In this document: in pieces, positions 2,593 through 64,000 of the stretch | Layout of the letters: each line of letters opens with the position of its first letter | How positions within the stretch are numbered: position 1 is the first letter of the stretch | Assembly (NCBI RefSeq): GCF_903903185.1 | Contig: NZ_CAIUXT010000150.1 | Location: forward strand, 27,425-91,424 | Reading direction: 5' to 3' | From: an uncultured Rhodoblastus sp. | Lineage (GTDB): Bacteria; Pseudomonadota; Alphaproteobacteria; Rhizobiales; Beijerinckiaceae | Length of the DNA stretch: 64,000 nucleotides | Made by a program: the position numbers and the translations under genes | Notes under the pieces: model-generated | The model's database searches: none | What the model was told of the DNA's origin: nothing | The model's input: only the letters and a program-made list of their open reading frames with translations

Positions 2593-2998
2593 GAAGGGCG
2601 CCTCACGCCTCTGCCGGCTCCGGCGGCCTCCACCGCAGCGCCGGCTTTCGCGCCGCCGCGGCCTTGCCCATGCGGGAAGGCTCGACCGCGGAAAAAATCC
2701 CGAAAACCGTCCATGCCAGCCAACCCAAGCCATTGCCAGAGACTCCGGCCGAATCCAGATCGCGCCGACGCGCAACAAGATTCCGCAGGCTATTCCCCAG
2801 GCGGCGGCGCATAGCCCTCTTGATGATACCTGGAGCTTGTGCGGTAATATGAATGCCAGCGGCGATTAATTCAAACCCAATAGAATCTGGAACGCTTTGT
2901 TTTTGCGAGGTCTCTGCGAAAAGCGGGCGCCCGGTTTCTCACACATTCTTCTATTGTCCATTTAACCATGGTCGCCGGTAAAGCTGCGGGAGTTCAAC

Positions 2999-33412: not shown

Positions 33413-33536
33413 TCTTTACAAGATTCGAAGTCTAAATCCGTTTTATTTCATTTTTAATATTGCGTATTCCGGCTATTTCGCTTTTGTAATCAAAAAATAA
33501 ATAGGCCGCTGAAAATTTTATGATTCGGGATGAACG

Positions 33537-46143: not shown

Positions 46144-47082
46144 TTGAGCGCGCCTTTTCCCGATCTCGCTTCCATCGCAGCCGGCGGCAAGCGCGGGCTA
46201 TCGCGCGCGCTGGCGCTGATCGAGACTCACGAGGGAAGCGCGGAACTGGCGCGCCTGCTTGACGCCGCGCTGGCGCAAACGCGCGCCCATGCGGCGGGGC
46301 TTACCGGCCCGCCCGGCGTCGGCAAATCGACGCTCACCAACGCCTTGTTGCGCGACTGGCGGGCGCGCGGCGAGACGGTGGGAGTGATCGCGGTCGATCC
46401 GTCTTCGCGGCGCACCGGCGGCGCCCTTTTGGGCGACCGCGCGCGGATGGCGACCGACCCGGACGACCAGGGCGTATTCGTCCGCTCGATGGCGGCGCGC
46501 GACCGGCTCGGCGGCCTGTCCGACCAGACCATCGCCGCTGCGGCCCTCATGCGCGCCCTGTTCGACCGCGTATTGATCGAAAGCGTCGGTATCGGCCAGT
46601 CGGAGGCCGATATTTCCTTCGCCGTCGACAGCGTCATTCTCTGCGTCCAGCCTGGTTCGGGCGACAGTCTGCAATTCATGAAGGCCGGCGTGATGGAATT
46701 GCCGGACATCGTCGTCGTCACCAAGGCGGATATGGGGGATGCGGCGCGGCGCGCCAAAAGCGAGGTCGAGGGCGCGCTGACCCTGTTCGAACGCGACGAC
46801 GACTGGCGCGTGCCGGTGATTCTGGCTTCGGCCACGACCGGCGTCGGGGTCGGCGAGCTTCACGAGGCCTTGGCGGAGCATCGCCTTTGGGCGGAAGGTT
46901 CGGGCGCGCTGTCGCGTCGCCGCGCCGCACAGCAAAAGGCATGGATCGAAGAATCCATCCGCGCCCGTTTTGGTTCGCAAGGACTTTTCTGTGCAAGCCA
47001 AATGCGGGTCGCCGCCGAAGGTCCTTTCGCGGAGGAACTGGCGATGGCGCAGGAATTGGCGCGGAGGCTGAGCCGGGGCTAA
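46144..47082 (+). CDS. meaB: Methylmalonyl-CoA mutase-associated G-protein chaperone MeaB/ArgK (TTG start per ORF track)
   Basis: ...RALALIE.....A..LL........HAAGLTGPPGVGKSTL...GVIAVDPSSRRTGGALLGDRARM...ESVGIGQSE...VVVTKAD. Confidence 0.88.
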   Translation: MSAPFPDLASIAAGGKRGLSRALALIETHEGSAELARLLDAALAQTRAHAAGLTGPPGVGKSTLTNALLRDWRARGETVGVIAVDPSSRRTGGALLGDRARMATDPDDQGVFVRSMAARDRLGGLSDQTIAAAALMRALFDRVLIESVGIGQSEADISFAVDSVILCVQPGSGDSLQFMKAGVMELPDIVVVTKADMGDAARRAKSEVEGALTLFERDDDWRVPVILASATTGVGVGELHEALAEHRLWAEGSGALSRRRAAQQKAWIEESIRARFGSQGLFCASQMRVAAEGPFAEELAMAQELARRLSRG

Positions 47083-47098: not shown

Positions 47099-47818
47099 TC
47101 ATAGGCCCGATTTCAATGACGCTTCGTGAGGTGAAATCATCCGGTAATGCCGCGCCAGGGCGTTCAGGCCGCGGCGCAGGATGAACAGGGCCACGGCGCC
47201 AGCCATCTTGGCGTCGCGATAGGCGCCGACTTCGCGCCCGATCTCGACCGGCTCGCGGTCGTTGAGCACGATGGCCGCCAAGGGTTCGCGAAAATCATCC
47301 GGTATCGCCTCGCGCGCGGCGCGAAATTTCTGCAGCGCCTCGATCTGGCTCTCGCAGCGCCAAAGGCCGTTGGGCGAATAGGCGGCGGCGACTTCCTGCG
47401 ACGGATCGAGCGCGCGCAGCGGATCGAGCCCGGCGCGAAAAAAATCATGGCGGTATTTTTCGCCCGCCTGCGCCATCGCAAGATTTTTCGCGCGGTCGTC
47501 GCGGTCGAGTTGGTTGCGGTCGCGCAGCCGGGCCAATGGCCCGTCGTCCATGCGCATGCGCACGAAATCGACAGTGACGGCTTCGAACTTGTCGCCCTGC
47601 GCGACCTCGACGATTTCTGAAAAAGTTTCGACTTTCGCGCCCTCGCCAGCCCTGAGAAGGCGTTCGACGCTCGGCCCTTCCGGCTTGCGATAGCCGGTGT
47701 TGCGAAAAGTCTCCAGCATCCGCCGCGCCTGTCTATCAGTGGACGGCGGCTCCGTGCAGGCGAGTTTCGCCAAGGAAATTCTGGTCTTGCGCCGCTTGTG
47801 CATGGCGTATTTCCCCAT
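47099..47818 (-). CDS. Phage-region hypothetical protein (second gene of the leftward operon)
   Basis: 239-aa ORF with good high-GC third-position codon usage: ...DDGPLARLRDRNQLDRDDRAKNLAMAQAGEKYRHDFFRAGLDP...REVGAYRDAKMAGAVALFILRRGLNALARHY (C-terminal HTH-like segment). Family not recognised with certainty. Confidence 0.55.
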   Translation of the reverse strand: MGKYAMHKRRKTRISLAKLACTEPPSTDRQARRMLETFRNTGYRKPEGPSVERLLRAGEGAKVETFSEIVEVAQGDKFEAVTVDFVRMRMDDGPLARLRDRNQLDRDDRAKNLAMAQAGEKYRHDFFRAGLDPLRALDPSQEVAAAYSPNGLWRCESQIEALQKFRAAREAIPDDFREPLAAIVLNDREPVEIGREVGAYRDAKMAGAVALFILRRGLNALARHYRMISPHEASLKSGL

Positions 47819-47833: not shown

Positions 47834-48409
47834 TCAGAGCGCGGAAAAATCGCTCAGCGTGAGCGTCAATTCGCCGCCGGGATTGCCGCCGTAGCAGGCG
47901 ACGAATTTATCCGGACTAAGGCCGCGTCGGATAATGCGACAGCGCGCCAGCAATTCGACCAGCGGCCGCTCCATCGCCCCGAACTGCCGCGTGCGCGCAT
48001 TGCGCGGCGCCATGATTTCGAGGGCATAGGTCGCGGCGATGCGCCCGGGCCTTTGCTGGCTGAGACGTTTCTGCGCCATATCCAGCCAGTCCTCATAGGC
48101 TTCCGAAGGCGCGAGGCCCTGCGCCGTCCGCACATAGAGCAGGGAGGGGGGGGGCGGCGGCGGCGCGTGCAGGGTAATTTTTTGCGCCGGCTGGCGCGGC
48201 TCGGCGCTGAGACCGAATTGCCCGGTTTTGGGGGTCGCCGCGCGCGGTCGGGCCATTTCGACCCGCAAGGGGCGAGCGCCAGCGCGTGGAACGATTACTT
48301 TGGTGGAGGAAAAAGGCGAGATTACGCAAAACGGAGCGAGGAGGGTCATGACGCCGCCATGGGGGAGAGGGGAAGAGGTCTTGCCGTTTTGGGACGGCAA
48401 AAAGAACAT
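47834..48409 (-). CDS. Phage-region hypothetical protein (first gene of the leftward operon), start uncertain, contains a C9 tract
   Basis: ORF-track entry. Codon bias is convincing only from about MARPRAATP... onwards. The candidate leftward promoter -10 overlaps the first ATG, so a downstream start is likely. Poly-Pro PPPPPP is encoded by CCG CCG CCG CCC CCC CCC. Confidence 0.45.
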   Translation of the reverse strand: MFFLPSQNGKTSSPLPHGGVMTLLAPFCVISPFSSTKVIVPRAGARPLRVEMARPRAATPKTGQFGLSAEPRQPAQKITLHAPPPPPPSLLYVRTAQGLAPSEAYEDWLDMAQKRLSQQRPGRIAATYALEIMAPRNARTRQFGAMERPLVELLARCRIIRRGLSPDKFVACYGGNPGGELTLTLSDFSAL

Positions 48410-48485: not shown

Positions 48486-49238
48486 ATGGATGAGGCGATC
48501 AAAAACCGCGTTCGGGCCGAAATGGATCGGCAGGGCCTCGACATGAAGGGCCTGTCGAAACTGGCTGGCCTTGGCGAGACCTATGTGCGCGACGCGCTCA
48601 AGCGCGGGCGCGGCGGTTCGCTGCCGGCCTTGCACAAGCTGGCTTCGGCGCTTGGGCGCTCGCTCGACTGGCTGATTACCGGCGCCGAGGAGGCGGGCGG
48701 CGAATTCGCCCCCGACAAGCCGCCGCGCCGGCGCCTCGACACCAGCGTCGATCTCAAGATGGTGGACAGCGCCTCGACCGACGCCGCCTCGACCATTTTC
48801 GAAGTGGATGTGCGCGCTGGCGCGGGCGGTGGCGGCGTGCCGGTCGAGGCCTTCGTCCATGACGAGAGCGGCAATGTCTATGCCGCCGAAGCGATAGCCG
48901 CCGAATGGAGCCTGCCTCCAGCGATCATGCAGGGGGTTTTGCACGCCAGCGCCCGTCATGTCCGGGTGTTCGAGGTGATCGGCGATTCGATGGAACCGCG
49001 CCTGTTCGAAGGCGACCGGGTGTTCATCGACCTGCGCTACACCATTCCGAGTCCCGAAGGCATTTTCGCGCTCTGGGACGGTTATGGCCTGGTGATCAAG
49101 AGGTTGCAGATGGTCATGGGTTCGGACCCGATGCGTATCCGCGTCATTTCCGCGAATCCGAGCTACACCCCCTATGAGGCGGCGGCGGACGATGTGAAAA
49201 TCGTCGGACGTTTCGCCGGACGTTTCACCGTCAACTGA
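48486..49238 (+). CDS. CI/LexA-type phage repressor (XRE HTH + S24 self-cleaving peptidase domain)
   Basis: N-terminal HTH ...GLDMKGLSKLAGLGETYVRDALKRGRGGSLPALHKLASALGRSLDWLI. C-terminal S24 domain with Ser in VIGDSMEP and Lys in GLVIKRL. Confidence 0.85.
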   Translation: MDEAIKNRVRAEMDRQGLDMKGLSKLAGLGETYVRDALKRGRGGSLPALHKLASALGRSLDWLITGAEEAGGEFAPDKPPRRRLDTSVDLKMVDSASTDAASTIFEVDVRAGAGGGGVPVEAFVHDESGNVYAAEAIAAEWSLPPAIMQGVLHASARHVRVFEVIGDSMEPRLFEGDRVFIDLRYTIPSPEGIFALWDGYGLVIKRLQMVMGSDPMRIRVISANPSYTPYEAAADDVKIVGRFAGRFTVN

Positions 49239-49411: not shown

Positions 49412-49504
49412 GTTATCCGCTGGCGTTCCCGGACCCGGATGGCGCCGCGACGCCGCGGGTCATTGCGAAATCGCGCGAGGCGGCCAATCGGACATGGATG
49501 GAAC

Positions 49505-50071
49505 ATGGCGTCGGACCCGCGCGAGATGATAACAAGAAAACGCAGCAGCCGGCTCGCCGAGGTCGGCAATATTCCAGCCGATCAGCCGGCGAATGCAGTC
49601 CCGGCGGCTTCGCGAAAAGCCCAGAGCCGCGAGACCGCGCTCGACCGCGTCAATCGCGATCTGGCGATCCTGAACATGCGCCTGCATGGGCTGACGTTTC
49701 ATGAGATCGCCCGCAAATTGCCGGAGGCGGGGTTTGGCCGCGTTTCGGTGAGCCGCATTTACGCCATCGTCACGAAAAACCTGCGCTCCTGCCGCGAGCC
49801 GCCGGCGCGCGAGTTGCGCCAGCTCGAATTGCTGCGTCTCGATCAATTGCAGGCGGCGCATTACCCGGCGGCGATGGGCGGCGATTCCGCCGCAGCATCC
49901 CGGGTTCTTTCCATCATGGATCGGCGCGCCAAGCTGCTCGGTCTCGACGCCGGCGCCGAGGCGGCCAGTTCGCTCGACGAGGCGCGCAAGTCGCTGCTCA
50001 AGAAGCTCGATTCGCTGGCGCGCGGACAAGCGGCGCCGGACAGGGGTCCCGAAGCTGAAGCGAAGAATTAA
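49505..50071 (+). CDS. Putative small terminase subunit / HTH DNA-binding protein
   Basis: MASDPREMITRKRSSRLAEVGNIP...LHGLTFHEIARKLPEAGFGRVSVSRIYAIVTKNL (HTH) followed by a coiled-coil-like tail. Sits immediately upstream of TerL. Alternative start at 49439. Confidence 0.45.
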   Translation: MASDPREMITRKRSSRLAEVGNIPADQPANAVPAASRKAQSRETALDRVNRDLAILNMRLHGLTFHEIARKLPEAGFGRVSVSRIYAIVTKNLRSCREPPARELRQLELLRLDQLQAAHYPAAMGGDSAAASRVLSIMDRRAKLLGLDAGAEAASSLDEARKSLLKKLDSLARGQAAPDRGPEAEAKN

Positions 50072-50079
50072 TCGCCTCG

Positions 50080-51429
50080 ATGGGAAAGGACCCGACCCAT
50101 GCCTACGCCCTGGCGCGGCTCGGCGCCCGCGAGCGCGCCGCTTTTTTCGCCAAACTCGACGCCGATGAACTGGAATCGCTTAAAACCCTGTGGCCGTTCT
50201 GGGCGCGTCCGGAACAATTGATTCCGCCGGGCGACTGGGTGTTCTGGCTGCCTCTCGCCGGGCGCGGCTGGGGCAAGACCCGCACCGGTGCGGAAACGGT
50301 GCGCCAATGGGCGCGCAGTTTTCCCATGGTCAACCTGATCGGCGCGACCGCCGATGATGTGCGCGACGTAATGGTTGAAGGCGAATCCGGCGTGCTGGCA
50401 ATTTGTCCGCGCGACGAGCGCCCTCGCTACGTCGCGCACAAGCGGCGTCTGGAATGGCCGAATGGGGCGAAAAGCCTGCTGTTTTCCGCCGAGGAACCCG
50501 AAAGGTTGCGCGGCAAGCAGCATATGAAATTTTGGGCCGATGAACTCGCCGCCTGGCGCTATCCCGACGCCTGGGACCAGGCGGTGTTCGGCCTGCGTTT
50601 GGGCGCGAAACCTCAGGCCATCGTCACCACGACGCCGCGGCCGACCAAATTCTTCCGTGATCTTTTGGCCGACCCTTTGACCTTTTCGACGCAGCATTCG
50701 ACGTTCGAGAACATGGGCAATCTGGCGGAAAATTTTCTCGACCGTGTCGTGCGCAAATATGAAGGCACTCGGTTGGGGCGGCAGGAATTGCATGCCCATC
50801 TGCTGCTCGACGCGCCGGGCGCCCTGTGGACGCGCGAAGTCATCGAAGCGGCGCTGGCCGACGGCAAGGAGCGGTCAAAACTCGGGCGCATCGTCGTCGC
50901 CGTGGATCCGCCCGCCACTTCCGGCGACAACGCCGACGAATGCGGCATGATCGTCGCCGGCCTCGCGCCCGACCGGGTTGTCCATGTCCTGGCCGATCTG
51001 TCGCGTCAGGGCGAGACGCCGCTCGGCTGGGCGTCGCGCGCCGTGCAGGCTTTTCGGGAGTTTTCCGCCGATTGCATCGTCGCCGAAGTCAATAATGGCG
51101 GCGAGATGATCGAGACACTGATTCGCCAGATCGACGCCAATGTGCCCTATCGCGCGGTGCGCGCCGCCCGCGGCAAATTCGCCCGCGCCGAGCCGGTGGC
51201 GGCGCTTTACGAGCAGGGCAGGGTGCGCCATTGCGGCGTCTTCGCCAAGCTTGAAGACCAGATGTGCCTGATGACGCCGGATTTCGACCGCTCCCGCGCC
51301 GGCTATTCGCCGGACCGCGTCGATGCTCTGGTCTGGGCGGTGTCGTCGCTGCTGTTCGAACAGGGCGACGGCGCGGCGGTGTTTGAATTTTACCGCGCGC
51401 AGGCCGACGGGCTGAATCGGCAGGGCTGA
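50080..51429 (+). CDS. terL: Terminase large subunit (RcGTA g2-like family)
   Basis: ...WPFWARPEQLIPPGDWVFWLPLAGRGWGKTRTGAETVRQW (Walker A)...FWADELAAW (Walker B)...VAVDPPATSGDNADECGMIVAG...AEVNNGGEMI (RNase H-like nuclease). Confidence 0.9.
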   Translation: MGKDPTHAYALARLGARERAAFFAKLDADELESLKTLWPFWARPEQLIPPGDWVFWLPLAGRGWGKTRTGAETVRQWARSFPMVNLIGATADDVRDVMVEGESGVLAICPRDERPRYVAHKRRLEWPNGAKSLLFSAEEPERLRGKQHMKFWADELAAWRYPDAWDQAVFGLRLGAKPQAIVTTTPRPTKFFRDLLADPLTFSTQHSTFENMGNLAENFLDRVVRKYEGTRLGRQELHAHLLLDAPGALWTREVIEAALADGKERSKLGRIVVAVDPPATSGDNADECGMIVAGLAPDRVVHVLADLSRQGETPLGWASRAVQAFREFSADCIVAEVNNGGEMIETLIRQIDANVPYRAVRAARGKFARAEPVAALYEQGRVRHCGVFAKLEDQMCLMTPDFDRSRAGYSPDRVDALVWAVSSLLFEQGDGAAVFEFYRAQADGLNRQG

Positions 51430-51472: not shown

Positions 51473-52828
51473 ATGACCGAACGCGGCGCGGGTCTTCCTC
51501 GCTGGTCCCTTTCGCCTGTCGAGGTCGCCGCCCGCCTCCGTGACAATGTCAACGGCGCCGCCGACTGGTTCGGCCCCTCGGACCCGCAGGCGCCGGGGGC
51601 GCCTGACGATGTCGCCGGCCGGCAATGGGATTTTCCCGCCGGCTATAATCTGAATATCCGCACGCGCTCCTATGAGGCGATTTCCTTCGCCGACCTGCGC
51701 GCGCTGGCCGACGCCTACGATCTGTTGCGGCTGGTCATCGAGACGCGAAAGGACCAGATCGAGCGGATGAACTGGAGCATTCGCGTCAGATCCGGCGCGA
51801 GCGCTGCGCCTGCGCAAATCGCCAAAGTTGAAAAGTTTTTCTTTTCCCCCGATGGCGCCCATGACTGGGCCGCCTGGATGCGCGTGGTGCTCGAAGACCT
51901 GTTCGTCATCGACGCGCCGGCGCTGTGGTGCGAGCGCGACCGCTCCGGCGCTTTGCTCGCCCTGCATCCCCTCGACGGCGCGACGATCAAGCCGGTGCTC
52001 GACGCCTGGGGACGCACGCCGCGTCCCTTCGCGCGCAACGGCGCGCTGGTCTATCCCGTCGCCTATCAGCAGATATTGAAGGGCATGCCGGCGGTCGATT
52101 ATTCCGCGCGCGACATCATCTATCGTCCGCGCAATGTTCGCTCGCATCGCGCCTATGGCTATTCGCCGGTCGAACAGGTGATCGCCACGGTCAATATCGG
52201 AATGAAGCGGCAATTGAGCCAGCTCAGCTATTACAGCGAAGGCAATATTCCCGAGAGTCTGATCGGCGTGCCGGACGCCTGGACGCCGGACCAGATCAAG
52301 AACTTTCAGGATTATTGGGATCTCTATTTCACTGGCGATCTGGCGCGGCGCAGACGCGCGAAATTCGTGCCCGGCGGCGTCGCCCGCACTTTTATTCAGA
52401 CGAAGGAGCCGGAGCTCAAGAACGCTTTCGACGAATGGATCGCCCGCGTCGTCTGCTTCGCCTTTTCGATCTCGCCGCAGCCTTTCGTCAACCAGATGAA
52501 TCGCGCGACGGGCGAAACGCAGAAGAACATGGCCGACGAGGAAGGATTGCTGCCGATCCTCGCCTGGATCAAGCGGCTCTGCGATCATGTCATCCATCTG
52601 CTCGGCGCGGAGAATCTGGAATTTGTATGGGGCCATGAGAGCATTATTGACCCGACCGTCCAGCGCGAAAATCTCGTCGCCTATGTCGGGGCCGGCATGA
52701 TGACGCGCCGCCGCGCGGCGGAAATTCTGGGCGAGACGCTGCCCGACGATCCGATGGCCGATGTGCTCACGGTGACGACGGGGCGGGGGGTGGTGCGGCT
52801 GGGAAGCAATTCGCTGACGCACAAATAG
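51473..52828 (+). CDS. Phage portal protein
   Basis: 451-aa ORF directly after TerL: ...ISFADLRALADAYDLLRLVIETRKDQIERMNWSIRVR...YSPVEQVIATVNIGMKRQ... Position and size are typical of a portal. Family not assigned. Confidence 0.7.
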   Translation: MTERGAGLPRWSLSPVEVAARLRDNVNGAADWFGPSDPQAPGAPDDVAGRQWDFPAGYNLNIRTRSYEAISFADLRALADAYDLLRLVIETRKDQIERMNWSIRVRSGASAAPAQIAKVEKFFFSPDGAHDWAAWMRVVLEDLFVIDAPALWCERDRSGALLALHPLDGATIKPVLDAWGRTPRPFARNGALVYPVAYQQILKGMPAVDYSARDIIYRPRNVRSHRAYGYSPVEQVIATVNIGMKRQLSQLSYYSEGNIPESLIGVPDAWTPDQIKNFQDYWDLYFTGDLARRRRAKFVPGGVARTFIQTKEPELKNAFDEWIARVVCFAFSISPQPFVNQMNRATGETQKNMADEEGLLPILAWIKRLCDHVIHLLGAENLEFVWGHESIIDPTVQRENLVAYVGAGMMTRRRAAEILGETLPDDPMADVLTVTTGRGVVRLGSNSLTHK

Positions 52829-52886
52829 TCCGGATTTCAAGGCGACGGTAGATTTCACCTTCGAAAAACGGGAGTGGTGGCGAGCC

Positions 52887-53945
52887 TTACTTTAAAATAT
52901 CTTTCAGCGCCGCAAAGAGTTTTTCCGACTGCTCCGCCGTCCCCACGGTGATGCGAAGATAATCGTCGATGCGGGGCAGATTGAAATGGCGCACCAGCAC
53001 GGCGCGGTTGCGCAGGGCTTGCGCCAGCTCGCCGCCTCTGGCGCCTGGATGGCGGGCGAAGATGAAATTGGCGCTCGACGGCAGCACCGAAAAACCCAAG
53101 TCCCGCAATTGCGCGCTCATGTTCTCGCGCTCCGCGACGATGGTCTTCAGGCTCGCCTGAAAATAGGCCTCGTCCTCGACCGACGCGATGGCGCCGGCCT
53201 GGGCGATGCGGCCGAGCGGATAGGAATTGAAACAGTTTTTGACGCGCGACAAAGCCTCGATCAGCGAGGCCGCGCCGAGCGCATAGCCGACCCGCAGGCC
53301 CGCCAGCGCGCGCGATTTGGAAAAAGTGCGCACCACCAGCAGATTGGGATGATCTGCGATCAGCGGAACGGCGGTTTCGCCGCCGAAATCGACATAGGCC
53401 TCGTCCACCACGACGGGAATGTCGGCGTTTTCCGCCACTAGCCGCGCGATGGCGTCGCGTCCCAGCGCGACGCCGGTCGGCGCATTGGGATTGGCGATGA
53501 TGATGGCGCCGGCCGAATTGCGGCGATAGTCGCCGGTGACGACGCGCAGGTCGTCGTCGAGCGCGACCGTCTCGGTGCGAATATCGTGAAGATTCGCCCA
53601 TACCGGATAAAAACTATAGGTCACGTCGGGAAACAGCAGCGGCTCGTCGTGTTTGAGCAGCGCCGGAAATATATGCGCCAGAACCTCGTCGGAACTATTT
53701 CCGACGAAAATATTCTCGACGCCGAGACCATGATAGGCGGCCAGCACTTTTCGCAAGGCGACCGATTCCGGATCTGGATAGAGCCGCAATGAATCGTCGA
53801 CGGCGTCGTGCATGGCCGCAAGGGCGCGCGGCGACGGCGGCAGCGGCGATTCATTGGTGTTGAGTTTGACCAGGCCCTCGATGCGCGGCTGTTCGCCGGG
53901 CGTATAGGGGCTCAGTCGCCGCGCAACCGCGCTCCAATACTGCAT
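52887..53945 (-). CDS. hisC: Histidinol-phosphate aminotransferase-type class-II PLP aminotransferase, antisense insert in the head module
   Basis: ...LSPYTPGEQP....VKLNTNESPL.PSP...LYPDP....LR..LA......ENIFVGNSSDEVL...IIANPNAPTG...VVVDEAYVDFGG...VVRTFSKSRALAGLRVGY (PLP Lys). Full length, no frameshift. Confidence 0.9.
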   Translation of the reverse strand: MQYWSAVARRLSPYTPGEQPRIEGLVKLNTNESPLPPSPRALAAMHDAVDDSLRLYPDPESVALRKVLAAYHGLGVENIFVGNSSDEVLAHIFPALLKHDEPLLFPDVTYSFYPVWANLHDIRTETVALDDDLRVVTGDYRRNSAGAIIIANPNAPTGVALGRDAIARLVAENADIPVVVDEAYVDFGGETAVPLIADHPNLLVVRTFSKSRALAGLRVGYALGAASLIEALSRVKNCFNSYPLGRIAQAGAIASVEDEAYFQASLKTIVAERENMSAQLRDLGFSVLPSSANFIFARHPGARGGELAQALRNRAVLVRHFNLPRIDDYLRITVGTAEQSEKLFAALKDILK

Positions 53946-54005
53946 TTTGGCTCCGTGCCATTGTTGCGCGTCGTCAGCAATAAATAGAAGCGCGCACTTT
54001 CTTTT

Positions 54006-55112
54006 ATGAAATTTCGTCGAAAAAGCCAGTCCCGTAATTACACGGAGCTGGCGCAGCCCTTCAAGGAGCGCCGCGTGCCCGAACTTTTAAACCTCTTCAT
54101 CCCCCTTCACAAGGCGGACGCCGACCAGCGGCTTGTCTATGGCTACGCCACGGCCGAACGGCCTGACCGGGCAGGGGAAATCTGCGATTACGTCACGACC
54201 AAACCCTTCTACGAACAATGGACGGCGGATTTCGCCAAGGCGTCCGGCGGCAAGAGCCTAGGCAATCTGCGCTCGATGCATGGCAAGGTGGCGGCGGGCA
54301 AAATCGCCGCCATCGCTTTCAACGACGATGAGAAGCGCATCGAAATCGCTGCGAAAATCATCGACGACGAGGAATGGCGCAAGATCGAGGAGGGGGTTTA
54401 CACGGGCTTCAGCCAGGGCGGCGCCTATGTGAAGCGCTGGACTGATCCGGGAAATCCGGATTTCATCCGTTATACGGCCCGCCCGAACGAAATCTCGCTG
54501 GTCGATCTGCCATGTCTTCCGGAGGCCACTTTCGAACTGGTGAAAGCCGACGGCGTCCGCGAGCAGCGCTCCTTCGCCGGAGCAATAAGCAAGAAGGCGC
54601 AAGTCGCCGCCAAGCTTGCGTCAGCCGGAATTGGTCCTTTCCTGCGCGAATGGCTGACGGGCAATGTCGAAAGCGAGGCCGGCGCCGCCGAGACTATTTC
54701 GGATTTTTTCGCGGCGATCGAAGCCGATCTCAACGCCGAGCCCATCCATACGGAAGCTTTGTCGAGCCTGCTGGAGCGACTGAAATCCCATTGCGTCGCC
54801 GTGGTGCAGCCGCGTGCGGCGCAGAAGTCGTCCGACAATGAGGCGCGGCTGGAAAAACTGGCTGACGATACCGAGGCGGCGCGAACAATGGCAGCGGATC
54901 TGGCCCCCCGATTGGCGGAGCTCGCCGAGCGGGTCGCCGCGCTGGAGCACAGCCCCGCGCCGCCGCCGCTGATTCCGGGGTTCGCTCCGGTATCCAAATC
55001 GGCGGACCCGGGCATCGAAGATCTCGCCGCCGCACTGGCGCGGCTTTCACCCGAGAAAGCCTCGCTCGTGCTTATCAAGGCGGCCCAGACGCAGCCGAAG
55101 AGGTTCGGCTGA
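54006..55112 (+). CDS. Putative prohead protease / scaffold fusion protein
   Basis: The N-terminal ~170 aa (FIPLHKADADQRLVYGYATAERPDRAGEICDY...LRSMHGKVAAGK...EISLVDLPCLPEATFE) resemble XkdF/prohead-protease-like domains. The C-terminal half is Ala/Glu/Leu-rich and helical (scaffold-like). Lies immediately upstream of the capsid gene. Confidence 0.5.
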   Translation: MKFRRKSQSRNYTELAQPFKERRVPELLNLFIPLHKADADQRLVYGYATAERPDRAGEICDYVTTKPFYEQWTADFAKASGGKSLGNLRSMHGKVAAGKIAAIAFNDDEKRIEIAAKIIDDEEWRKIEEGVYTGFSQGGAYVKRWTDPGNPDFIRYTARPNEISLVDLPCLPEATFELVKADGVREQRSFAGAISKKAQVAAKLASAGIGPFLREWLTGNVESEAGAAETISDFFAAIEADLNAEPIHTEALSSLLERLKSHCVAVVQPRAAQKSSDNEARLEKLADDTEAARTMAADLAPRLAELAERVAALEHSPAPPPLIPGFAPVSKSADPGIEDLAAALARLSPEKASLVLIKAAQTQPKRFG

Positions 55113-55191: not shown

Positions 55192-56712
55192 ATGTCCATG
55201 AACGCACAACACAACGCGCTGGAATTGAATCAGGCGATCCGCAAGGCGCAATCCGCGCCCTTGTTCGATCCGCGATTCGCCAGCCTGGAGAAATCCACCT
55301 TTTCGCAGAGCGCTTCCGCCGCCTCGGGTCTCACCTATTACGACCTCGAGACCGGCGCCAAGCTGCTCTTTCCGGTGCTGACGCCGCTGCGCAACTCCAT
55401 CCCCCGCGTCTCAGGAAAGGGCGGCATTCAGGCCGCCTGGCGTGCAATCACCGCGATCAACAACACGGGTCTGAGGGTTGGCGTATCGGGCGGCAATCGC
55501 GGCGGCGTCGCCGCTATTCAGACCAAGGATTATATTGCGACCTACAAGGGCATCGGCATCGAGACCAGCGTCGATTTCGAAGCGCAATACGCCGGACAGA
55601 ATTTCGACGACATTCGCGCGCTCGCCGCCCAGGCCGGGCTGGAGGCGCTGATGATCGGCGAAGAGGCGCTGATCCTCGGCGGGAATACTTCGCTTGCCCT
55701 CGGCGTCACCAATACGCCGACGCTCGCCGCCTCGAACTCGGGCGGCGCTCTGGCGACCGGAACCCTGTCGGTGATCGTCGTGGCGCTGACGCTCGATGCC
55801 CTGATCAATTCCACGGTCGCTTCTCCTTCGGGCGTACAGGCTTCGATTGTCCGCACCAACGCCGACCTCTCCTCCGACACATTCGGCGGCGGCGCGGCGC
55901 AGAAATCCGCCAACGCCACAATCGCCGTCACCGGCCCGGCGGGCAGCGTCACGGCCTCGGTAGCGGCCACGCGCGGGGCTTTCGGCTATGCCTGGTATTG
56001 GGGCGCCGTCGGCTCCGAAACGCTCGGCGCGATCACGACCATCAACAGCATCTCGATCGTCGCCAACGCGACGGGAACGCAGACCGCAGCTTTGCTGCCG
56101 AACGCCGACAATTCCTCGAACGCCCTGGTTTTCGACGGCCTGCTGACCCAGGCTTTGCAGCCAGGTTCCGGCGCCATTGTCAATGTCCAGCCGACCGGCG
56201 CCGCCGGCGTTGGGACGCCCTTGACGGCGGACGGCGCCGGCGGCGTGGTGGAGATCGAAGCCATCCTCAAGGCCAATTGGGATTTGTATCGCCTCTCGCC
56301 CGACGAAGTCTGGGTCTCGTCGCAGGAAGCGAACAATATTTCGAAGAAGATTCTCGCCGGAGGCGCCAACAGCGCCCAGCGATTCATCTTCGACGCCCAG
56401 CAGGACGCGATTGGCGGCGGCGTGATGGTCACCACCTACAAGAACAAATACTCGCTGGCGGGCGCCAAATCGATCGACGTCAAGATTCATCCCAATATGC
56501 CGCCCGGAACCATGCTGTTCCTGACCCGGAAATTGCCCTATCCGCTCGCCAATGTCGGCAATGTCGTGCAGATCCGCACGCGTCAGGACTATTACCAGAT
56601 CGAATGGCCGCTGCGCGCGCGCCGTTACGAATATGGCGTCTATGCCGACCAGGCGCTTCAGCACTTTTTCCCGCCCAGCATGTCCGTCATCACCAATATC
56701 GGCAATGGCTGA
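55192..56712 (+). CDS. Putative major capsid protein
   Basis: 506-aa ORF after the protease/scaffold gene: MSMNAQHNALELNQAIRKAQSAPLFDP...LTYYDLETGAKLLFPVLTPLRNSIPRV... Followed by a strong hairpin. Assignment is by position and composition only. Confidence 0.6.
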   Translation: MSMNAQHNALELNQAIRKAQSAPLFDPRFASLEKSTFSQSASAASGLTYYDLETGAKLLFPVLTPLRNSIPRVSGKGGIQAAWRAITAINNTGLRVGVSGGNRGGVAAIQTKDYIATYKGIGIETSVDFEAQYAGQNFDDIRALAAQAGLEALMIGEEALILGGNTSLALGVTNTPTLAASNSGGALATGTLSVIVVALTLDALINSTVASPSGVQASIVRTNADLSSDTFGGGAAQKSANATIAVTGPAGSVTASVAATRGAFGYAWYWGAVGSETLGAITTINSISIVANATGTQTAALLPNADNSSNALVFDGLLTQALQPGSGAIVNVQPTGAAGVGTPLTADGAGGVVEIEAILKANWDLYRLSPDEVWVSSQEANNISKKILAGGANSAQRFIFDAQQDAIGGGVMVTTYKNKYSLAGAKSIDVKIHPNMPPGTMLFLTRKLPYPLANVGNVVQIRTRQDYYQIEWPLRARRYEYGVYADQALQHFFPPSMSVITNIGNG

Positions 56713-56852: not shown

Positions 56853-57068
56853 ATGAAATTTCAGGCTCCAGTAGGCTTGACCGCTGTTACTTGTGCGGGC
56901 GAGGCTTTCGCGCCGGATGACAATGGCGGCTTTGAAGCCGCCGAAGGTCTGGCCGCGGAACTTGCGGCGCATGGATGCTTTCCCGCGGGCGCCGCAGAAT
57001 CGACGGCGGCGGAAAAAGCCAGCGATTCCTGTCCGCGCGCCCGCGTTCGCTCGGAAAAGGCGCCGTGA
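56853..57068 (+). CDS. Phage hypothetical protein (71 aa)
   Basis: ATG 56853 preceded by AGGATCGAG: MKFQAPVGLTAVTCAGEAFAPDDNGGFEAAEGLAAELAAHGCFPAGAAE... Its stop overlaps the next gene's GTG (GTGA). Confidence 0.4.
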   Translation: MKFQAPVGLTAVTCAGEAFAPDDNGGFEAAEGLAAELAAHGCFPAGAAESTAAEKASDSCPRARVRSEKAP

Positions 57069-57070
57069 GC

Positions 57071-58270
57071 ATGGCGCGGGGCGATCTCGTTTCCCTGGCG
57101 CAACTCAAGGCGCATCTCGGCGTCCAGTCGAGCGCCGACGACATTCTGCTCGCCAGTATGATCGGTCAGATCAGCCGTGCGATTTGCACCTATATCAACC
57201 GGCCTTTTGTCTGGGCGCCGCACGGACCCGCGACCCAATGGAAGCCGCAGTCGAAACCGATCGTCTTCGTCGAATATGGCTTCGCCAGCGTCGATCGCTG
57301 CACCAACCAGCCAAACGTTTTTTTCGATGCGAAATCGACGGAAAGCGGCACACCTTTCTGGTCCCTCTGGCAGGGCCCTGATGGCGGCGTCTGGATGCCG
57401 AAGCGCGATGACCTGCTCGCCGACATGGCGTTGCAGGCAGTGCATGATTATTGGAGCGCGCAAGCCAATATCGAGACCTCCAGTTCTGGCGTTCCGATGA
57501 TTTTCGCGCCGTTTTGTTGCGCATGGAACTGGGATGCGCGACCGTTTCCGACTTTTCCTCTCCAAGCCGGCGTCTGGGGCGACGGCGGGAATTGGCCAAC
57601 CGGCAACTGGATTTGCGGCAAGGGGCCGGCGATCGATCCGCCAGCGGTCGAAACGCCGCCGGGCCCAGGGACCTTTGCCGTTTTTCCGGTGCTGATGGGA
57701 CAAGGCTGGGGCGTCAAATATGCGCCGCGCTTTTCGACCGGCGTCCTTGCCCATGTTTCGGGGCGCGAAGCGCGAACGGCCCGGATCGTCAGTCCGCTTT
57801 ATGATATCGAATTGAACTTCGAACTCTTGCGCGACAATGCAAGTCAATTGGAATTACAGCAGGTTATTGGCTTCATTGGCGCTCATGCGGGCCGGACGAA
57901 GCCTTTCCTGTTCGCGCCTCCAGCCGGTTTAAGCATCTGTCGCGGCGAATCGCTGGGGATGGGAGACGGCTTGGCCCGGTCGTTCCTGTTGCGGCGGATG
58001 ATTGGCGGCTACGCGGAGAGCGTTCAGGCGGTCACTGGCGCTGCGACGGTGTATCTGAACGGATTAGCTCTGTCCTCAGACGCCTATGAAGTCTCGATCC
58101 TTCCGGCGAGTGTGACTTTCACGGTTGCGCCGCCCTCCGGCGCCTTGCTGACCGTGGATTTCAATGCCGCGCATCTCGTCCGCTTTGCCGAAGACAGCGT
58201 CGATCTGGAGCATTTCATGAGCGACTTTTGGGCCTCGAAATCTCTCATGCTTGAAACGGTGCGCGCTTGA
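57071..58270 (+). CDS. Chimeric tail/connector protein: gp6-like head-tail connector N-terminus + GTA TIM-barrel C-terminal fragment + DUF2460-like distal-tail domain
   Basis: N-terminus MARGDLVSLAQLKAHLGVQSSADDILLASMIGQISRAICTYINRPF. Middle KPIVFVEYGFASVDRCTNQPNVFFDAKSTES...WNWDARPFPTFPLQAGVWGDGGNWPTGNW. C-terminus FPVLMGQGWGVKYAPRFSTGVLAHVSGREARTA...VRFAEDSVDLEHFMSDFWASKSLMLETVRA. Confidence 0.6.
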   Translation: MARGDLVSLAQLKAHLGVQSSADDILLASMIGQISRAICTYINRPFVWAPHGPATQWKPQSKPIVFVEYGFASVDRCTNQPNVFFDAKSTESGTPFWSLWQGPDGGVWMPKRDDLLADMALQAVHDYWSAQANIETSSSGVPMIFAPFCCAWNWDARPFPTFPLQAGVWGDGGNWPTGNWICGKGPAIDPPAVETPPGPGTFAVFPVLMGQGWGVKYAPRFSTGVLAHVSGREARTARIVSPLYDIELNFELLRDNASQLELQQVIGFIGAHAGRTKPFLFAPPAGLSICRGESLGMGDGLARSFLLRRMIGGYAESVQAVTGAATVYLNGLALSSDAYEVSILPASVTFTVAPPSGALLTVDFNAAHLVRFAEDSVDLEHFMSDFWASKSLMLETVRA

Positions 58271-58869
58271 GTCCCCCGCTCTTTCCGACCCTGCCGGGAC
58301 AAGGCTGGAGCGTCGTTAAAACGCCGACGTTTTCGACGCGCGTGGCCTCGCATTCCTCGGGCCGTGAAGCACGAACCGGACTTTACGCCCATGCGCTCTA
58401 TGCGTTCGAATTGACCTTCGATGGTCTCGATTCAGCCGCCGCCAACGCCGGCCTGCAAGCAAACTCGCTCCAGTCCCTGATGGGCTTCTGGCTTTCCTGC
58501 GGCGGCCAACTCGGAACCTTCCTTTACGCCGACCCGACCGACAACACCGCTGTCAATCAGGTCATCGCTGTTGGCGACGGATCGACCACGACGTTCACTT
58601 TCGGTCGCGCCATCGGCGGCTATTTCGAGCCTGTTTCCTATGTAACGTCGGTATCGGGCGTCACGATCAATGGCGTCTCCACGACTGCCTATTCATGGAG
58701 CGCGCCGAACACGATCGCCTTCTCCACCGCGCCGATCGGCGGGGCGCGCATCGCCGCCAGTTTTGCTTTTGCCTTCCAGTGCCGCTTTCTCGACGACCAG
58801 GCGGAATTCGAGAATTTCATGTCCGGCATCTGGCGGGTCAAAAGCCTCAAATTCCGCCAGGTGCGTTGA
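58267..58869 (+). CDS. DUF2460-family distal tail protein (RcGTA g12-like)
   Basis: (TTG) SPPLFPTLPGQGWSVVKTPTFSTRVASHSSGREARTG...GFWLSCGGQLGTFLYADPTDN...IAVGDGSTTTFTF...CRFLDDQAEFENFMSGIWRVKSLKFRQVR. Paralogous to the C-terminus of the preceding ORF. Confidence 0.75.
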   Translation: MSPPLFPTLPGQGWSVVKTPTFSTRVASHSSGREARTGLYAHALYAFELTFDGLDSAAANAGLQANSLQSLMGFWLSCGGQLGTFLYADPTDNTAVNQVIAVGDGSTTTFTFGRAIGGYFEPVSYVTSVSGVTINGVSTTAYSWSAPNTIAFSTAPIGGARIAASFAFAFQCRFLDDQAEFENFMSGIWRVKSLKFRQVR

Positions 58870-59781
58870 ATGAAGTCCGCTCCTCCAGCTCTTGTCGCTT
58901 TTCTCAACACGCTGCGCTCGACTTCCGACGCGCCTTTGCTGACGGCGGATTGTTATACCATCTTGCTCGCCAATGGCGCCGTGCTGACGTACACCGATCT
59001 CGACATTCCGTTTGCGCTCAACGGTTTCGCTTACCTGGCGAATTCGGTCTTGATCTCGGGTTTGAAATATCGCGCGTCCTGCGGTGTCAATGTCGATAGC
59101 CAGCAGGTGACGATTTGCGCGCGCACGACCGACACGATTGGCGGAGTTCCATTTCTACAGGCCTTGCGGCAGGGGCTTTTCGACGGCGCTGAAATTCGGC
59201 GCGAAAAGGCTTTCTTCTCCGCCTGGGGGACGCCGCCGATCGGTTCAATCGTAATGTTCAAGGGGCGCGTCGCACAGATCGATTCAATCGGCCGCGCCAG
59301 CGCGCAGGTCACTGTCGCGTCCGATCTCGTGCTGCTCGACATCGACATGCCGCGCAACTGCTATCAGGCCAATTGCCAGCATGTCCTTTATGACGCCAAT
59401 TGCACCGTCGTCGCAGGAACCTATTCGACGACCGGAAGCGTCGGCGCAGGCTCGACGCAGACGCAGATATACTGGCCGGGGGCGATTCCCCCCTTTCAGC
59501 AGGGGACTATTACCTTCACCTCAGGCGGCAATACCGGTGCGGTCGCGACGATCAAATCGGCTGGAAGCGGCTGGCTGCAGCTTGCCTATCCCTTGCTCTA
59601 TTCGCCCGCCGCCGGCGATGCCTTTTCGGCTTCCTATGGCTGCGACCACACGATGGCGACATGCCAGAGTCGCTTCAACAACCTAAGCCAGTTTCGCGGT
59701 TTTCCGTTTGTGCCGCCGCCGCAGATCATGACGGGGCCGCTTTCTTCGGTGGTCTCCAACAGCGCCAAGGGCGGAAAATAG
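58870..59781 (+). CDS. DUF2163 + BR0599-type tail hub protein (RcGTA g13-like)
   Basis: MKSAPPALVAFLNTLRSTSDAPLLTADCYTILLANGAVLTYTDLDIPF...GFAYL...SASYGCDHTMATCQSRFNNLSQFRGFPFVP (C-terminal Cys motif typical of BR0599 domain). Confidence 0.75.
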   Translation: MKSAPPALVAFLNTLRSTSDAPLLTADCYTILLANGAVLTYTDLDIPFALNGFAYLANSVLISGLKYRASCGVNVDSQQVTICARTTDTIGGVPFLQALRQGLFDGAEIRREKAFFSAWGTPPIGSIVMFKGRVAQIDSIGRASAQVTVASDLVLLDIDMPRNCYQANCQHVLYDANCTVVAGTYSTTGSVGAGSTQTQIYWPGAIPPFQQGTITFTSGGNTGAVATIKSAGSGWLQLAYPLLYSPAAGDAFSASYGCDHTMATCQSRFNNLSQFRGFPFVPPPQIMTGPLSSVVSNSAKGGK

Positions 59782-59790
59782 GAGTTGGCC

Positions 59791-60264
59791 ATGACCGAAG
59801 TCGAACGGCGCCAACTGGAGGACAGAAACCGCGTGGTCTCGGAAGCGCGCAAATGGATTCTGACCCCCTATCATAATGGCGCCGATATCCTCGGCGCCGG
59901 CGTGGATTGCGGCATGCTGATCGTGCGGGTATTCGTCGATCTGGGCCTGGTCCCGGCTTTCGATCCGCGGCCCTATGATCCCGACTGGATGCTTCATCGC
60001 GACGATGAAAAATATCTTTCGTTTTTTTCACAACGCTGCGCGCGGGTCATCAAGCCGCAACCCGGCGATCTGGCGCTGTTTCGCTATGGCCGCTGTTATT
60101 CGCATGGGGGCATTGTAACTGGCGCCGATCCCGTTGCTATTGTTCACGCCTATCATGACGCCGGTTGCGTCGTCGAGGAAGCGCTCGCGCAAAATCCTGC
60201 GCTCACCGACCCCAGGCGCAAGCTGGCCTTTTTTTCCATCTGGGCTGAAAAGACGAGGGCATAA
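59791..60264 (+). CDS. NlpC/P60-family cell-wall peptidase (RcGTA g14-like)
   Basis: AGGAG-N6-ATG: MTEVERRQLEDRNRVVSEARKWILTPYHNGADILGAGVDCGMLIVRVF (catalytic Cys)...GDLALFRYGRCYSHGGIV (His). The ORF track's TTG start at 59785 is less likely. Confidence 0.8.
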   Translation: MTEVERRQLEDRNRVVSEARKWILTPYHNGADILGAGVDCGMLIVRVFVDLGLVPAFDPRPYDPDWMLHRDDEKYLSFFSQRCARVIKPQPGDLALFRYGRCYSHGGIVTGADPVAIVHAYHDAGCVVEEALAQNPALTDPRRKLAFFSIWAEKTRA

Positions 60265-62607: not shown

Positions 62608-64000
62608 ATGTCCGTTCAAGTCAAACGTCGCCGTGACACGGCGGCCAACGTCGCAGTCTATGCCGGCGCGCAGGGCGAACTAATCGTCGACACGACCAAC
62701 AACCGGGTCACCGTTCATGATGGCGTCACGCCGGGCGGCTTCGCGGCCGCGAAATTGTCCGAGGTGCTAACAGCCGCGCGTACGGCGGTGATGGATGCGA
62801 ATTACGCCGTGCTCGTCTCCGATCGCACGATCGCTTTCACCGCGATCACCGTTGCTCGCGCGGTGGCTTTGCCGGCGGCGTCGTCATATCCGACTGGAGT
62901 TTCCTTGAGGGTTGTCGACGAGAGCGGAAACGCCTCCTCGTCCAAGATGATCGCTTTCACGCCTAATGGTTCGGACTTGATCGACGGCCTGTCGAGCGCG
63001 GCGATTTCGTCGCCCTATGGCTACCTCGTACTGCAAAGTAACGGCGCGGTCAGCCCCAACGGAAAATGGACCATCGTCGATCAGGCGACTTCCGGGCTTC
63101 CCTTCGTCGGCATCGGAACAGCGGCGGACCCGGGCAACCCACTTTCAGTTTTTGGCGCCTCGGCCTTGTTCAATGGGACGAATTTCAACTTCACCCTTAA
63201 CAAGTCGGCGGTTGGCAATACCGCGTCGATCCTTTTCCAGGATGGATTTTCAGGCCGCGCCCAAGTCGGACTTACAGGCGACGATAATTTCCATTTCAAG
63301 GTATCGCCGAACGGATCGAGTTGGCTCGATGCGCTCGACTTCAACGCGAATACCGGGCAAGCCTCGATTAATTACGGAATTGCGTCCGGCGAAGCCCTGA
63401 GTTGGCGCAACCGTCTCCGCAATGCCTCATTCGCCGTCAACCAGCGCAATGTTTCGGGCGCGGTGACGCTGTCGGCGGGCGCGTACGGACACGATGGCGT
63501 CAAGGGCGGCGCGAGCGGCGCGACCTACACTTTCGCAACTTCGGGCGCTGACACAACGTTGATAATTACCTCGGGGTCGTTGATCCTGCCGATCGAATCC
63601 TCGCTGATCGAAGGCGGGGCCTATACGGTCCAAAACGCAGGAACGGCCCAGGCGCGCGTTTGGCAGGGAACAGGATACAGCGGTTCGGGCGCCTATGCTT
63701 CGGCGGCGGTGAGCCCGACTGCGGCGCCGCTGACCTTCGCCAGCCTCACGGCGGCAACGCAGACCAACGTGGAGTTTTCAACAGGCACGGTGCTGCGCCC
63801 GCAGTTCGAGTTCGGATATGTGGCGACTGCTTTCGAGCGGCGGCCTCCCGGCGTCGAACTTTTTCTATGCCATAGATATTATTTCAGGATTGCAGCCACG
63901 GGTTCCTATTCTCCCTTCGGCCTGGGGTCCGGCGTCAGCCCGACGGACATCCGCGTCGAACTTGACTCGCCCGCACCGATGCGAGGCGCGCCGACGCTGA
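62608..64000 (+). CDS. Tail-fibre-like protein, 5' part (open at the right edge of the window)
   Basis: ATG 62608 preceded by AAAGGAAA: MSVQVKRRRDTAANVAVYAGAQGELIVDTTNNRVTVHDGVTPGGFAAAKL. This resembles the conserved N-terminal module of phage fibres (hyaluronidase / Mtd N-terminal type). The frame stays open to 64000, so it is absent from the ORF track. Confidence 0.55.
   Translation, partial: MSVQVKRRRDTAANVAVYAGAQGELIVDTTNNRVTVHDGVTPGGFAAAKLSEVLTAARTAVMDANYAVLVSDRTIAFTAITVARAVALPAASSYPTGVSLRVVDESGNASSSKMIAFTPNGSDLIDGLSSAAISSPYGYLVLQSNGAVSPNGKWTIVDQATSGLPFVGIGTAADPGNPLSVFGASALFNGTNFNFTLNKSAVGNTASILFQDGFSGRAQVGLTGDDNFHFKVSPNGSSWLDALDFNANTGQASINYGIASGEALSWRNRLRNASFAVNQRNVSGAVTLSAGAYGHDGVKGGASGATYTFATSGADTTLIITSGSLILPIESSLIEGGAYTVQNAGTAQARVWQGTGYSGSGAYASAAVSPTAAPLTFASLTAATQTNVEFSTGTVLRPQFEFGYVATAFERRPPGVELFLCHRYYFRIAATGSYSPFGLGSGVSPTDIRVELDSPAPMRGAPTL

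Follow-up and report, generated by a model that had tools for sequence, protein, structure and literature searches.

An antisense hisC gene at the portal-protease junction of a phage-derived cluster in Rhodoblastus

The hisC gene and its immediate neighbors

In a stretch of 64,000 nucleotides from an uncultured Rhodoblastus sp. (NCBI RefSeq assembly GCF_903903185.1, contig NZ_CAIUXT010000150.1, positions 27,425 to 91,424; the whole stretch is called the window hereafter), we examined a phage-derived element whose head module is interrupted by hisC, a gene for histidinol-phosphate aminotransferase (52887..53945, minus strand). The gene is located between those for the portal and the head-maturation protease and is antisense to the otherwise co-directional module. 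A first-pass annotation of the window had described at this place a full-length class-II aminotransferase dependent on pyridoxal phosphate (PLP), and this description was borne out: the open reading frame (ORF) is intact from its ATG start, encodes 352 amino acids, and contains in its translation all of the three motifs that had been picked out, namely NPNAPTG, VVVDEAYVDF, and RTFSKSRALAGLRVGY.

The protein encoded by hisC was matched to Pfam Aminotran_1_2 (E = 1.7e-55) and also to the NCBIfam hisC equivalog model TIGR01141, for which the score of 304.1 bits exceeds the cut-off of 276.55 and the match covers residues 9-350 of 352; all other NCBIfam aminotransferase models scored far under their own cut-offs. 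The closest solved structure is that of a histidinol-phosphate aminotransferase, PDB 3HDO (E = 2.7e-61). When aligned with HisC of Escherichia coli, every PLP and substrate residue of the E. coli enzyme was found to be kept, the corresponding residues in the window protein being Y56, Y110, N154, D181, Y184, S209, K210, R218, Y242, R319, and R331. Following the roles assigned in the E. coli HisC structures, we take K210 to be the Schiff-base lysine, whereas the others comprise PLP ligands, tyrosines that contact the substrate, and the two arginines that bind phosphate. Judged by every sequence feature examined, the gene belongs to the HisC family, and its product is predicted to be enzymatically active.

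In its composition, hisC does not stand out from the surrounding genes. Its GC content at the third codon position (GC3) is 0.75, compared with 0.64-0.80 in the neighboring phage genes, and its relative synonymous codon usage (RSCU) is indistinguishable from theirs; the deviating base composition by which a cargo gene may be recognized is hence not seen. The first-pass remark that hisC resembles the host genes in its codon usage is correct but carries no information, because codon usage is fully ameliorated in the phage genes and the RSCU values of phage and host genes in the window are correlated with r = 0.97, so that the whole window looks host-like. Codon usage was therefore dropped as a means to discriminate between host and phage genes.

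The nearest cultured relatives of the element are the Brevundimonas siphophages Polewnik and Strzyga. On the side of the 3' end of hisC, the packaging genes are encoded on the plus strand: the small terminase (TerS; 49439-50071) and the large terminase of the T4 type (TerL; 50080-51429), for which matches to Terminase_6N, Terminase_6C, and PHROG terminase families were obtained, and a short-form portal of 451 amino acids (51473..52828; PF04860; phrog_2662, E = 5.7e-70). On the other side, also on the plus strand, are the head-maturation protease/scaffold-like gene (54075..55112; 345 amino acids from a GTG start, with the longest ORF from 54006) and the gene for the major capsid protein (MCP; 55198..56712; 504 amino acids as called, with the longest ORF from 55141; phrog_13692, E = 2e-138). 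The assignment of the protease is based upon a weak match to the XkdF-type Peptidase_S78_2 and upon matches to PHROG head-maturation proteases. The adjacent genes of Polewnik exhibit identities of 47% (TerL), 50% (portal), 49% (the gene following the portal), and 61% (MCP, gp44) to those in the window; by their order and sequence identity, the TerL, portal, protease, and MCP genes are parts of one element.

The spacers on both sides of hisC are short. The portal stop codon is separated from that of hisC by a convergent spacer of 58 bp (52829..52886) with no convincing terminator. Spacers of 58 and 60 bp had been given in the first-pass annotation, and both lengths are right as far as the first ATG of the protease frame is concerned (53946-54005 is 60 bp). 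The divergent region from the ATG of hisC to the start of the protease is, however, 129 bp long (53946..54074), because the conserved start codon is the GTG at 54075; indeed, an alignment of 17 relatives places this GTG behind a Shine-Dalgarno sequence, AAGGAG (54063-54068), and an independent gene call also gives the protease product of 345 amino acids. The same 17-locus alignment revealed two hairpins with positions conserved across the clade (~53966-53995 and ~54025-54052), the second of which has three covarying base pairs, and a conserved TTTAG(N)AAAAT motif is present between the two. Rfam gave zero family matches for the hairpins in this spacer. Within the clade, the spacing from the 5' end of hisC to the protease gene is constant, and that from the portal gene to the 3' end of hisC ranges from 52 bp to 4.4 kb.

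Distribution, ancestry, and site of the insertion

How common this arrangement is was examined by scanning with the MCP, which gave 160 loci; the counts below use the loci showing both portal and protease. An antisense hisC was found at the portal-protease junction in all 15 of the loci with an MCP identity of at least 76%, all from Rhodoblastus, and in none of the 60 loci with an identity of 71% or less. Such a presence/absence comparison had been proposed in the first-pass annotation, and its outcome is that the insertion is not a one-off; as is the case with a moron, hisC is inserted between two genes that are adjacent in relatives, where it is absent. Among MCP homologues from named organisms, those of at least 74% identity are all from Rhodoblastus, and those of 71% or less are from Bradyrhizobium, Methylocystis, Methylocapsa, Methylovirgula, and Methylobacterium. 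A HisC protein identical to that of the window is encoded in the same context on another contig, and homologues of 87% identity and, in Rhodoblastus acidophilus, of 75% identity are likewise encoded between portal and protease genes and share the flank yjbQ-meaB-DUF6456-repressor. Among the best 80 loci in a species-level scan of genomes, R. acidophilus was the sole species with phage genes beside hisC; the hisC genes that rank next among these loci are ordinary chromosomal ones, from an alphaproteobacterial metagenome-assembled genome (69%), Bradyrhizobium (61-64%), and beta- and gammaproteobacteria (54-60%).

The phylogeny of hisC copies, which had likewise been proposed, resolved the copies within the element as a single clade nested in alphaproteobacterial hisC, with ordinary chromosomal hisC of the Phenylobacterium/Reyranella/Stellaceae type as the sister group. 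We also looked elsewhere in the window for an ancestral hisC locus near genes resembling the neighbors in Phenylobacterium, and no synteny was found. Pairwise distances of hisC are correlated with those of the MCP, portal, protease, and TerL (r = 0.88-0.96, 55-153 pairs). The yjbQ-meaB flank is common to the window and the loci L004, L006, L008, and L169. Synonymous divergence (dS) was compared between host genes and phage genes. Against L004, dS is 0.37 for meaB and 0.35-0.48 for TerL, portal, hisC, and MCP (0.35-0.50 over host and phage genes); against L169 and L006, it is 0.82 and 0.87 for meaB, respectively, and 0.66-0.87 for phage genes. The ratio of nonsynonymous to synonymous divergence (dN/dS) is 0.12-0.26 in phage genes, 0.13-0.22 in meaB and yjbQ, and 0.16-0.26 in hisC; a few values above 1 were ignored as artefacts of gapped tblastn segments.

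No integrase was found over 46 kb on the left side of the element or in the ~10 kb to the right of its g15-like tail gene, and the window contains no tRNA gene. A replication module was not seen in the same regions, either; TerS directly follows the repressor gene. Because host and phage genes have co-diverged in dS, dN/dS is low, and no integrase or replication module was seen, we argue from these comparisons that the element has been passed on together with the chromosome, that purifying selection has maintained it, and that hisC is a passenger fixed within it.

The site into which hisC has been inserted is a variable one. While the junction between portal and protease genes had been assumed in the first-pass annotation to be normally tight, this does not apply here: the distance from the portal core end to the protease start in the 60 relatives without hisC ranges from 36 to 7684 bp with a median of 1.75 kb, being shorter than 500 bp in 20 of the 60, and the space is occupied by toxin/immunity and other cargo. 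Within the variable stretch, R. acidophilus DSM 137 has a Gln_amidase toxin domain in a C-terminal extension of the portal, and the portal extensions of L105 have DUF6883/DUF4926, CdiA_C, and Tox-REase-5 domains; orphan fragments of the portal C-terminus and an Imm35 immunity-type ORF were also found at the junction of relatives. The loci with portal toxins are L008 (11865-13823, minus strand), L105 (2188-7492), and L102 (7083-7802), and the portal extensions there come after the conserved end of the core, ...TVTTGQGV.RLG, and a linker motif, K(Y/F)SxxQPRDxxGRW. It thus looks like the portal itself carries a polymorphic toxin system in these relatives. The portal in the window ends 21 amino acids past the conserved core and is toxin-less; the features of a polymorphic toxin, which are present in L008, L105, and L102, are absent from it. 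At the junction of two other loci without hisC, we noticed an antisense LysR-family regulator (L197, 6189-7277, minus strand) and a DUF3280 protein (L120, 7167-7784).

In the nearest relatives without hisC, a GC-rich hairpin followed by a T-run (e.g., GCCCGCCTCGCGCGGGC CTTTTC) is present 20-40 nt before the protease start. This arrangement was detected in 13 of 78 distinct loci, including L105, L107, L117, L187, L189, L190, and L196, and in none of 78 shuffled sequences, which suggests a terminator or antitermination point between packaging and head operons. Because this putative terminator lies upstream of the protease gene in relatives without hisC, one operon probably ends and another begins at the portal-protease junction, and transcription of the head genes may start from a separate promoter. 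hisC would therefore sit in a cargo slot between transcription units, and its insertion would be less disruptive than had been assumed. In particular, the earlier view that late transcripts have to pass head-on through hisC before the capsid genes are reached is weakened by the terminator-like site before the protease gene in the nearest relatives.

Layout and decay of the element

To the left of the repressor gene is ordinary chromosome, with genes for the glycine-cleavage P protein, LpxK, KdtA, DXP synthase, and PPDK, which are followed by yjbQ (45526-45945, plus strand) and meaB (46144-47082, plus strand). The order of this flank is kept in R. acidophilus and the relatives from metagenomes. 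Two minus-strand genes come next, a DUF6456 gene (47099-47818) and a gene for a 191-amino-acid protein (47834-48409), which are of uncertain affiliation but conserved in order. According to Pfam, PHROG, and NCBIfam, the phage-like genes begin at 48486 with a CI/LexA-like repressor of the S24 type (48486..49238, plus strand; Peptidase_S24, phrog_4), which is syntenic in all relatives.

The right half of the element, all on the plus strand, starts after the MCP gene with an ORF of 431 amino acids for a connector/baseplate fusion (56975..58270) and continues with a DUF2460 gene similar to g12 of gene transfer agents (GTAs; 58267-58869), a Gp84_N/BR0599 gene similar to g13 (58870-59781), an NlpC/P60 gene similar to g14 (59785-60264), and a g15-like gene for a megatron-like host-specificity protein (60264-62396); the g12-g15-like set, assigned by Pfam and NCBIfam, has 38-45% identity to the tail genes of Polewnik, with 45% for the g15-like gene. 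A tail-fiber gene with an Mtd_N domain (62608..64000) runs off the window, for which reason it is outside the ORF list, and continues in L330 (7260-8834). In the source contig, more fiber-like genes and an Amidase_2 gene follow, and the ~10 kb to the right of the g15-like gene encode fibers, amidase, and lysozyme, giving an element of ~32-33 kb with structural and lysis genes. We also sought the right boundary through the downstream proteins; a homologue with 50% identity was located in an unrelated context, and only fibers and amidase were seen over 10 kb. Related to the tail genes, L277 (IMGVR_UViG_3300045806_000179, 64.9 kb) encodes a g15-like protein of 67% identity together with an SNF2 helicase, an AEP primase, a UvrD helicase, and Pam3 gp33/34-like proteins; its gene content suggests the complete genome of a phage in this tail lineage, and it comes from the same sample type as close relatives of the window.

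The copy in the window is defective. The fusion ORF joins in frame the N-terminus of a connector (~residues 18-79) with the C-terminal third of an 837-amino-acid GTA_TIM/DUF2460 baseplate protein, as revealed by Pfam domains and tblastn, and the breakpoints in blastn comparisons with L169 and L091 indicate a deletion of ~6.0 kb with its junction at 57212-57218 and a 7-bp overlap/microhomology. By synteny with Polewnik and relatives, the missing ~6 kb would have encoded the rest of the connector, head-completion proteins, the tail tube, chaperones, the tape measure, and the N-terminus of the baseplate protein. An identical fusion is present in L330, another metagenome assembly of the same organism. 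With the ~6 kb that spans connector to tape measure missing, the element in the window is, as judged from its gene content, unable to build tailed particles. A complete virion gene set was found in several relatives but not in the window; indeed, none of the marks of an intact temperate prophage (integrase or att repeats, a replication module, and the full virion set) was seen for this copy in the sequence covered, which extends ~10 kb past the g15-like gene and stops short of the right end of the element.

Other copies are broken at other places. In L327, both TerL and the MCP are truncated, to 238 and 443 amino acids, respectively; one assembly of R. acidophilus has an insertion sequence (IS) next to the portal gene; and in L104, a 27.5-kb integrative element interrupts the connector gene (from L104 ~11969 to L276 ~1324, IMG genome 2929327430). 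hisC is intact in all of these broken copies, namely the window, L327, the copy with the IS, and L104, and is therefore considered to be selected for its own sake, which would be a selection independent of the element. The 27.5-kb insertion encodes a tyrosine integrase that has an Arm-binding domain, along with an AAA_25 protein, a ResIII helicase, and a D5-type primase, and its insertion point is ~35 bp from the start of the deletion in the window; this proximity may represent a hotspot or the scar of an imprecise excision.

Apart from the element, the GC content of the window dips to 0.518 at 33001-34148, compared with ~0.63, where an ORF of 203 amino acids (33537-34148, plus strand) has a GC3 of only 0.53, unlike all other genes in the window, and may have been acquired recently. 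Two long ORFs with coding-like GC3 (143-2869, plus strand, 908 amino acids; 21856-23649, minus strand, 597 amino acids) have no Pfam match at E <= 1e-5.

Interpretation and comparison with known systems

Our preferred explanation, to which we assign a probability of roughly 60%, is that a phage-derived cluster, now fixed in the chromosome and defective in this genome, acquired hisC at one of its cargo hotspots in one ancient event. A functional hisC of the alphaproteobacterial type would have been captured once, in reversed orientation, between TerS-TerL-portal and protease-MCP of a Polewnik-like element, no later than in the ancestor of those Rhodoblastus lineages that were sampled. The site of capture would be a recombination-prone cargo slot, which in other loci accommodates portal-fused toxin domains, immunity genes, and regulators, and the capture itself may have occurred by cassette-type recombination. 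Thereafter, the element would have been passed on as part of the chromosome, next to meaB, while purifying selection acted on its structural genes, and selection would retain hisC even in copies whose phage genes are in decay. Most likely, hisC is transcribed alone from the 129-bp divergent spacer and would serve the histidine synthesis of the host. In this genome, hisC would then be a chromosomal gene embedded in a prophage remnant. The first-pass annotation had left the choice between a moron or auxiliary metabolic gene (AMG) of a phage and a chromosomal gene trapped in a domesticated element; the clade-wide presence, the co-divergence, and the lack of a visible integrase or replication module best fit the latter and disfavor an AMG of an active phage.

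Several points weigh against this explanation. The genome scan covers the best 80 loci, and the importance of hisC to the host is presumed. The comparison of dS with host genes consists of three genome pairs only, and the search for an integrase stops before the right end of the element. In L097 (1-1101), L100, and L101, all from IMG genomes, a LuxR/GerE-type gene for 366 amino acids, not meaB, is located to the left of the DUF6456 gene; the left flank available in these three is 1.1 kb, with which the same locus is not confirmed for this subclade, and the LuxR-type neighbor is either an insertion or the sign of a different locus. Around hisC, neither a sigma-70 consensus in the 129-bp spacer nor a terminator-like site in the 58-bp spacer was found, leaving the gene with no recognizable promoter or terminator consensus, and the spacers fold no better than shuffled sequence. 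Also, the HisC family includes aromatic aminotransferases, and the specificity of the protein for histidinol phosphate is a prediction from its sequence.

A credible though clearly less probable explanation is that the element represents an undescribed domesticated system of phage particles, either GTA-like or toxin-delivering and with head genes unrelated to those of RcGTA, the GTA of Rhodobacter capsulatus, in which hisC would encode an enzyme required by the host and anchor the locus. The retention at one site over the history of the genus, the probable control by a CI/LexA-like repressor, and the portal-fused toxins in many strains are consistent with such a system. If this is true, hisC would make the locus hard to lose, and its insertion would couple an essential metabolic gene to a virus-derived machine.

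It seems unlikely that antisense read-through of hisC from the packaging operon ties the expression of hisC to the production of particles, as the first-pass annotation had envisaged. Read-through would be possible across the 58-bp spacer, which is devoid of a recognizable terminator, and the conserved spacing from hisC to the protease gene as well as the two hairpins could be taken as signs of such coupling. The putative terminator 20-40 nt before the protease start in relatives, however, indicates a head operon that is separate or dependent on antitermination regardless of hisC, a promoter dedicated to the head genes could lie in the conserved spacer with its Shine-Dalgarno sequence, and the copy in the window cannot produce complete particles.

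Even less probable is that hisC is an AMG of an active temperate phage, which would boost histidine for virions and spread horizontally in Rhodoblastus with site-specific integration beside meaB. The absence of hisC from distant relatives and its position at the cargo site of the family would be expected from such a phage; the CI-like repressor is retained, an apparently complete relative with replication genes (L277) was recovered from the same kind of sample, and IMG/VR has classed these regions as proviruses. Nonetheless, neither an integrase nor a replication module was seen in the ~33-kb elements, phage genes and the host genes that flank them have the same dS in the three comparisons, and hisC is intact where TerL, MCP, or tail genes are broken. 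In the phage collection, moreover, hisC-like genes reach 49% identity at most, the best matches being short or unannotated records, and no match came from any phage related to the element in the window.

We consider it improbable to a similar or slightly greater extent that the gene is a paralogue in the HisC family with another role, such as an aromatic aminotransferase, a CobD/CobC-like protein, or a function of the element linked to its toxin/immunity cargo. The family does have such paralogues, as seen in the second-rank NCBIfam and PDB matches, the gene is located outside a his operon, and toxin/immunity cassettes adjoin hisC in relatives. Against such a role, the hisC equivalog cut-off was passed with the other models far below theirs, the phosphate-binding arginines and tyrosines of E. 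coli HisC are conserved, and the sister-group genes are found in ordinary chromosomal contexts. Finally, the notion that hisC is ordinary chromosome between two unrelated prophage remnants, which the first-pass annotation had named as the case that would overturn its view, can practically be dismissed despite the visible degradation of the element, because the TerL-portal and protease-MCP pairs are contiguous in the same order and with comparable identities in single phages such as Polewnik and in ~75 related loci, with less than 500 bp between the two in 20 of the 60 relatives without hisC.

While cargo genes are common in prophages, a core amino-acid biosynthesis gene placed antisense in the middle of a head module, in every sampled relative across a genus, is uncommon. 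Under the favored explanation of an ancient capture, selection would have long kept the phage genes, given the co-divergence, the purifying selection on a dozen structural genes, and the integrase and replication modules that were not seen. Strains of R. acidophilus with intact clusters would thus offer a culturable test case for the fixation of a prophage and its stabilization by an embedded host gene. The junction would also be a natural laboratory of cargo exchange, and the portal-fused toxin domains would extend the concept of MuF toxins. For annotation, hisC at this locus is not to be masked as viral, and provirus predictors will flag a region with what is probably a housekeeping gene. 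A literature search on GTAs of Rhodoblastus and on hisC within head modules of prophages brought up no relevant paper.

When compared with known enzymes, the HisC protein in the window has the same length and fold family as those of E. coli (the 1FG3 family) and Geobacter metallireducens (3HDO). It matches the E. coli residues Y55, N157, D184, Y187, S213, R222, R322, R335, Y110, Y243, and the PLP lysine, but its overall identity to the E. coli enzyme is 29%, and its gene is found outside any his operon and within phage DNA.

Polewnik and Strzyga (vB_BpoS; ON529863 and ON529867) share with the element the gene order TerL-portal-protease/scaffold-MCP-connector...tape measure...g13/g14/g15-like. 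Unlike the element, these are complete 62-kb phages with genes for replication and nucleotide metabolism and without hisC. The protease gene of Polewnik starts 58 bp after that of the portal, and the Polewnik portal, of 774 amino acids, has a C-terminal extension not shared by the window or by any member of the Rhodoblastus clade.

In temperate phages, the portal gene is closely followed by that for a MuF polymorphic toxin (Jamet et al. 2017, PMC5576092). Like MuF toxins, the relatives of the element have variable C-terminal toxin domains in a slot after the portal core, which are followed by immunity-like ORFs; in the relatives, however, the toxin domains are fused directly to the portal with no MuF domain in between. 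We also considered that hisC might have replaced a MuF-like C-terminus of the portal and rejected this idea, given that the Polewnik C-terminus has left no remnant in the clade and is found in only a few of the relatives without hisC.

As an extra antisense gene between two conserved late genes that is absent from relatives, and probably with its own expression signals, hisC resembles the morons and AMGs of phages. It differs from them in being a core amino-acid biosynthesis gene with the same composition as its surroundings, in being fixed in all sampled loci of the Rhodoblastus clade, and in being kept as the phage genes decay; also, hisC is not an established phage AMG.

The head module had been viewed in the first-pass annotation in the frame of the GTA of Rhodobacter capsulatus (RcGTA), but this frame does not fit: the terminase is of the T4 type, and the portal and MCP families are nearest to those of the Brevundimonas siphophages. 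Across the RcGTA head-tail cluster g1-g15, the likeness is limited to the distal tail genes g12-g15, i.e., DUF2460, BR0599, NlpC/P60, and GTA_TIM/megatron, and Polewnik has g12-g15-like tail genes, too. The head and packaging genes of the element are instead Terminase_6, the phrog_2662 portal, and the phrog_13692 MCP, and the element is further distinguished from RcGTA by its size of ~32 kb, a CI-like repressor, contiguous fiber and lysis genes, portal-fused toxin domains in relatives, and the embedded hisC. Several copies of the element are broken. Vertical inheritance and purifying selection, which characterize GTAs in general, are nonetheless found in the element, and like RcGTA-type agents, it is a chromosomal and apparently vertically inherited cluster of phage-derived structural genes.

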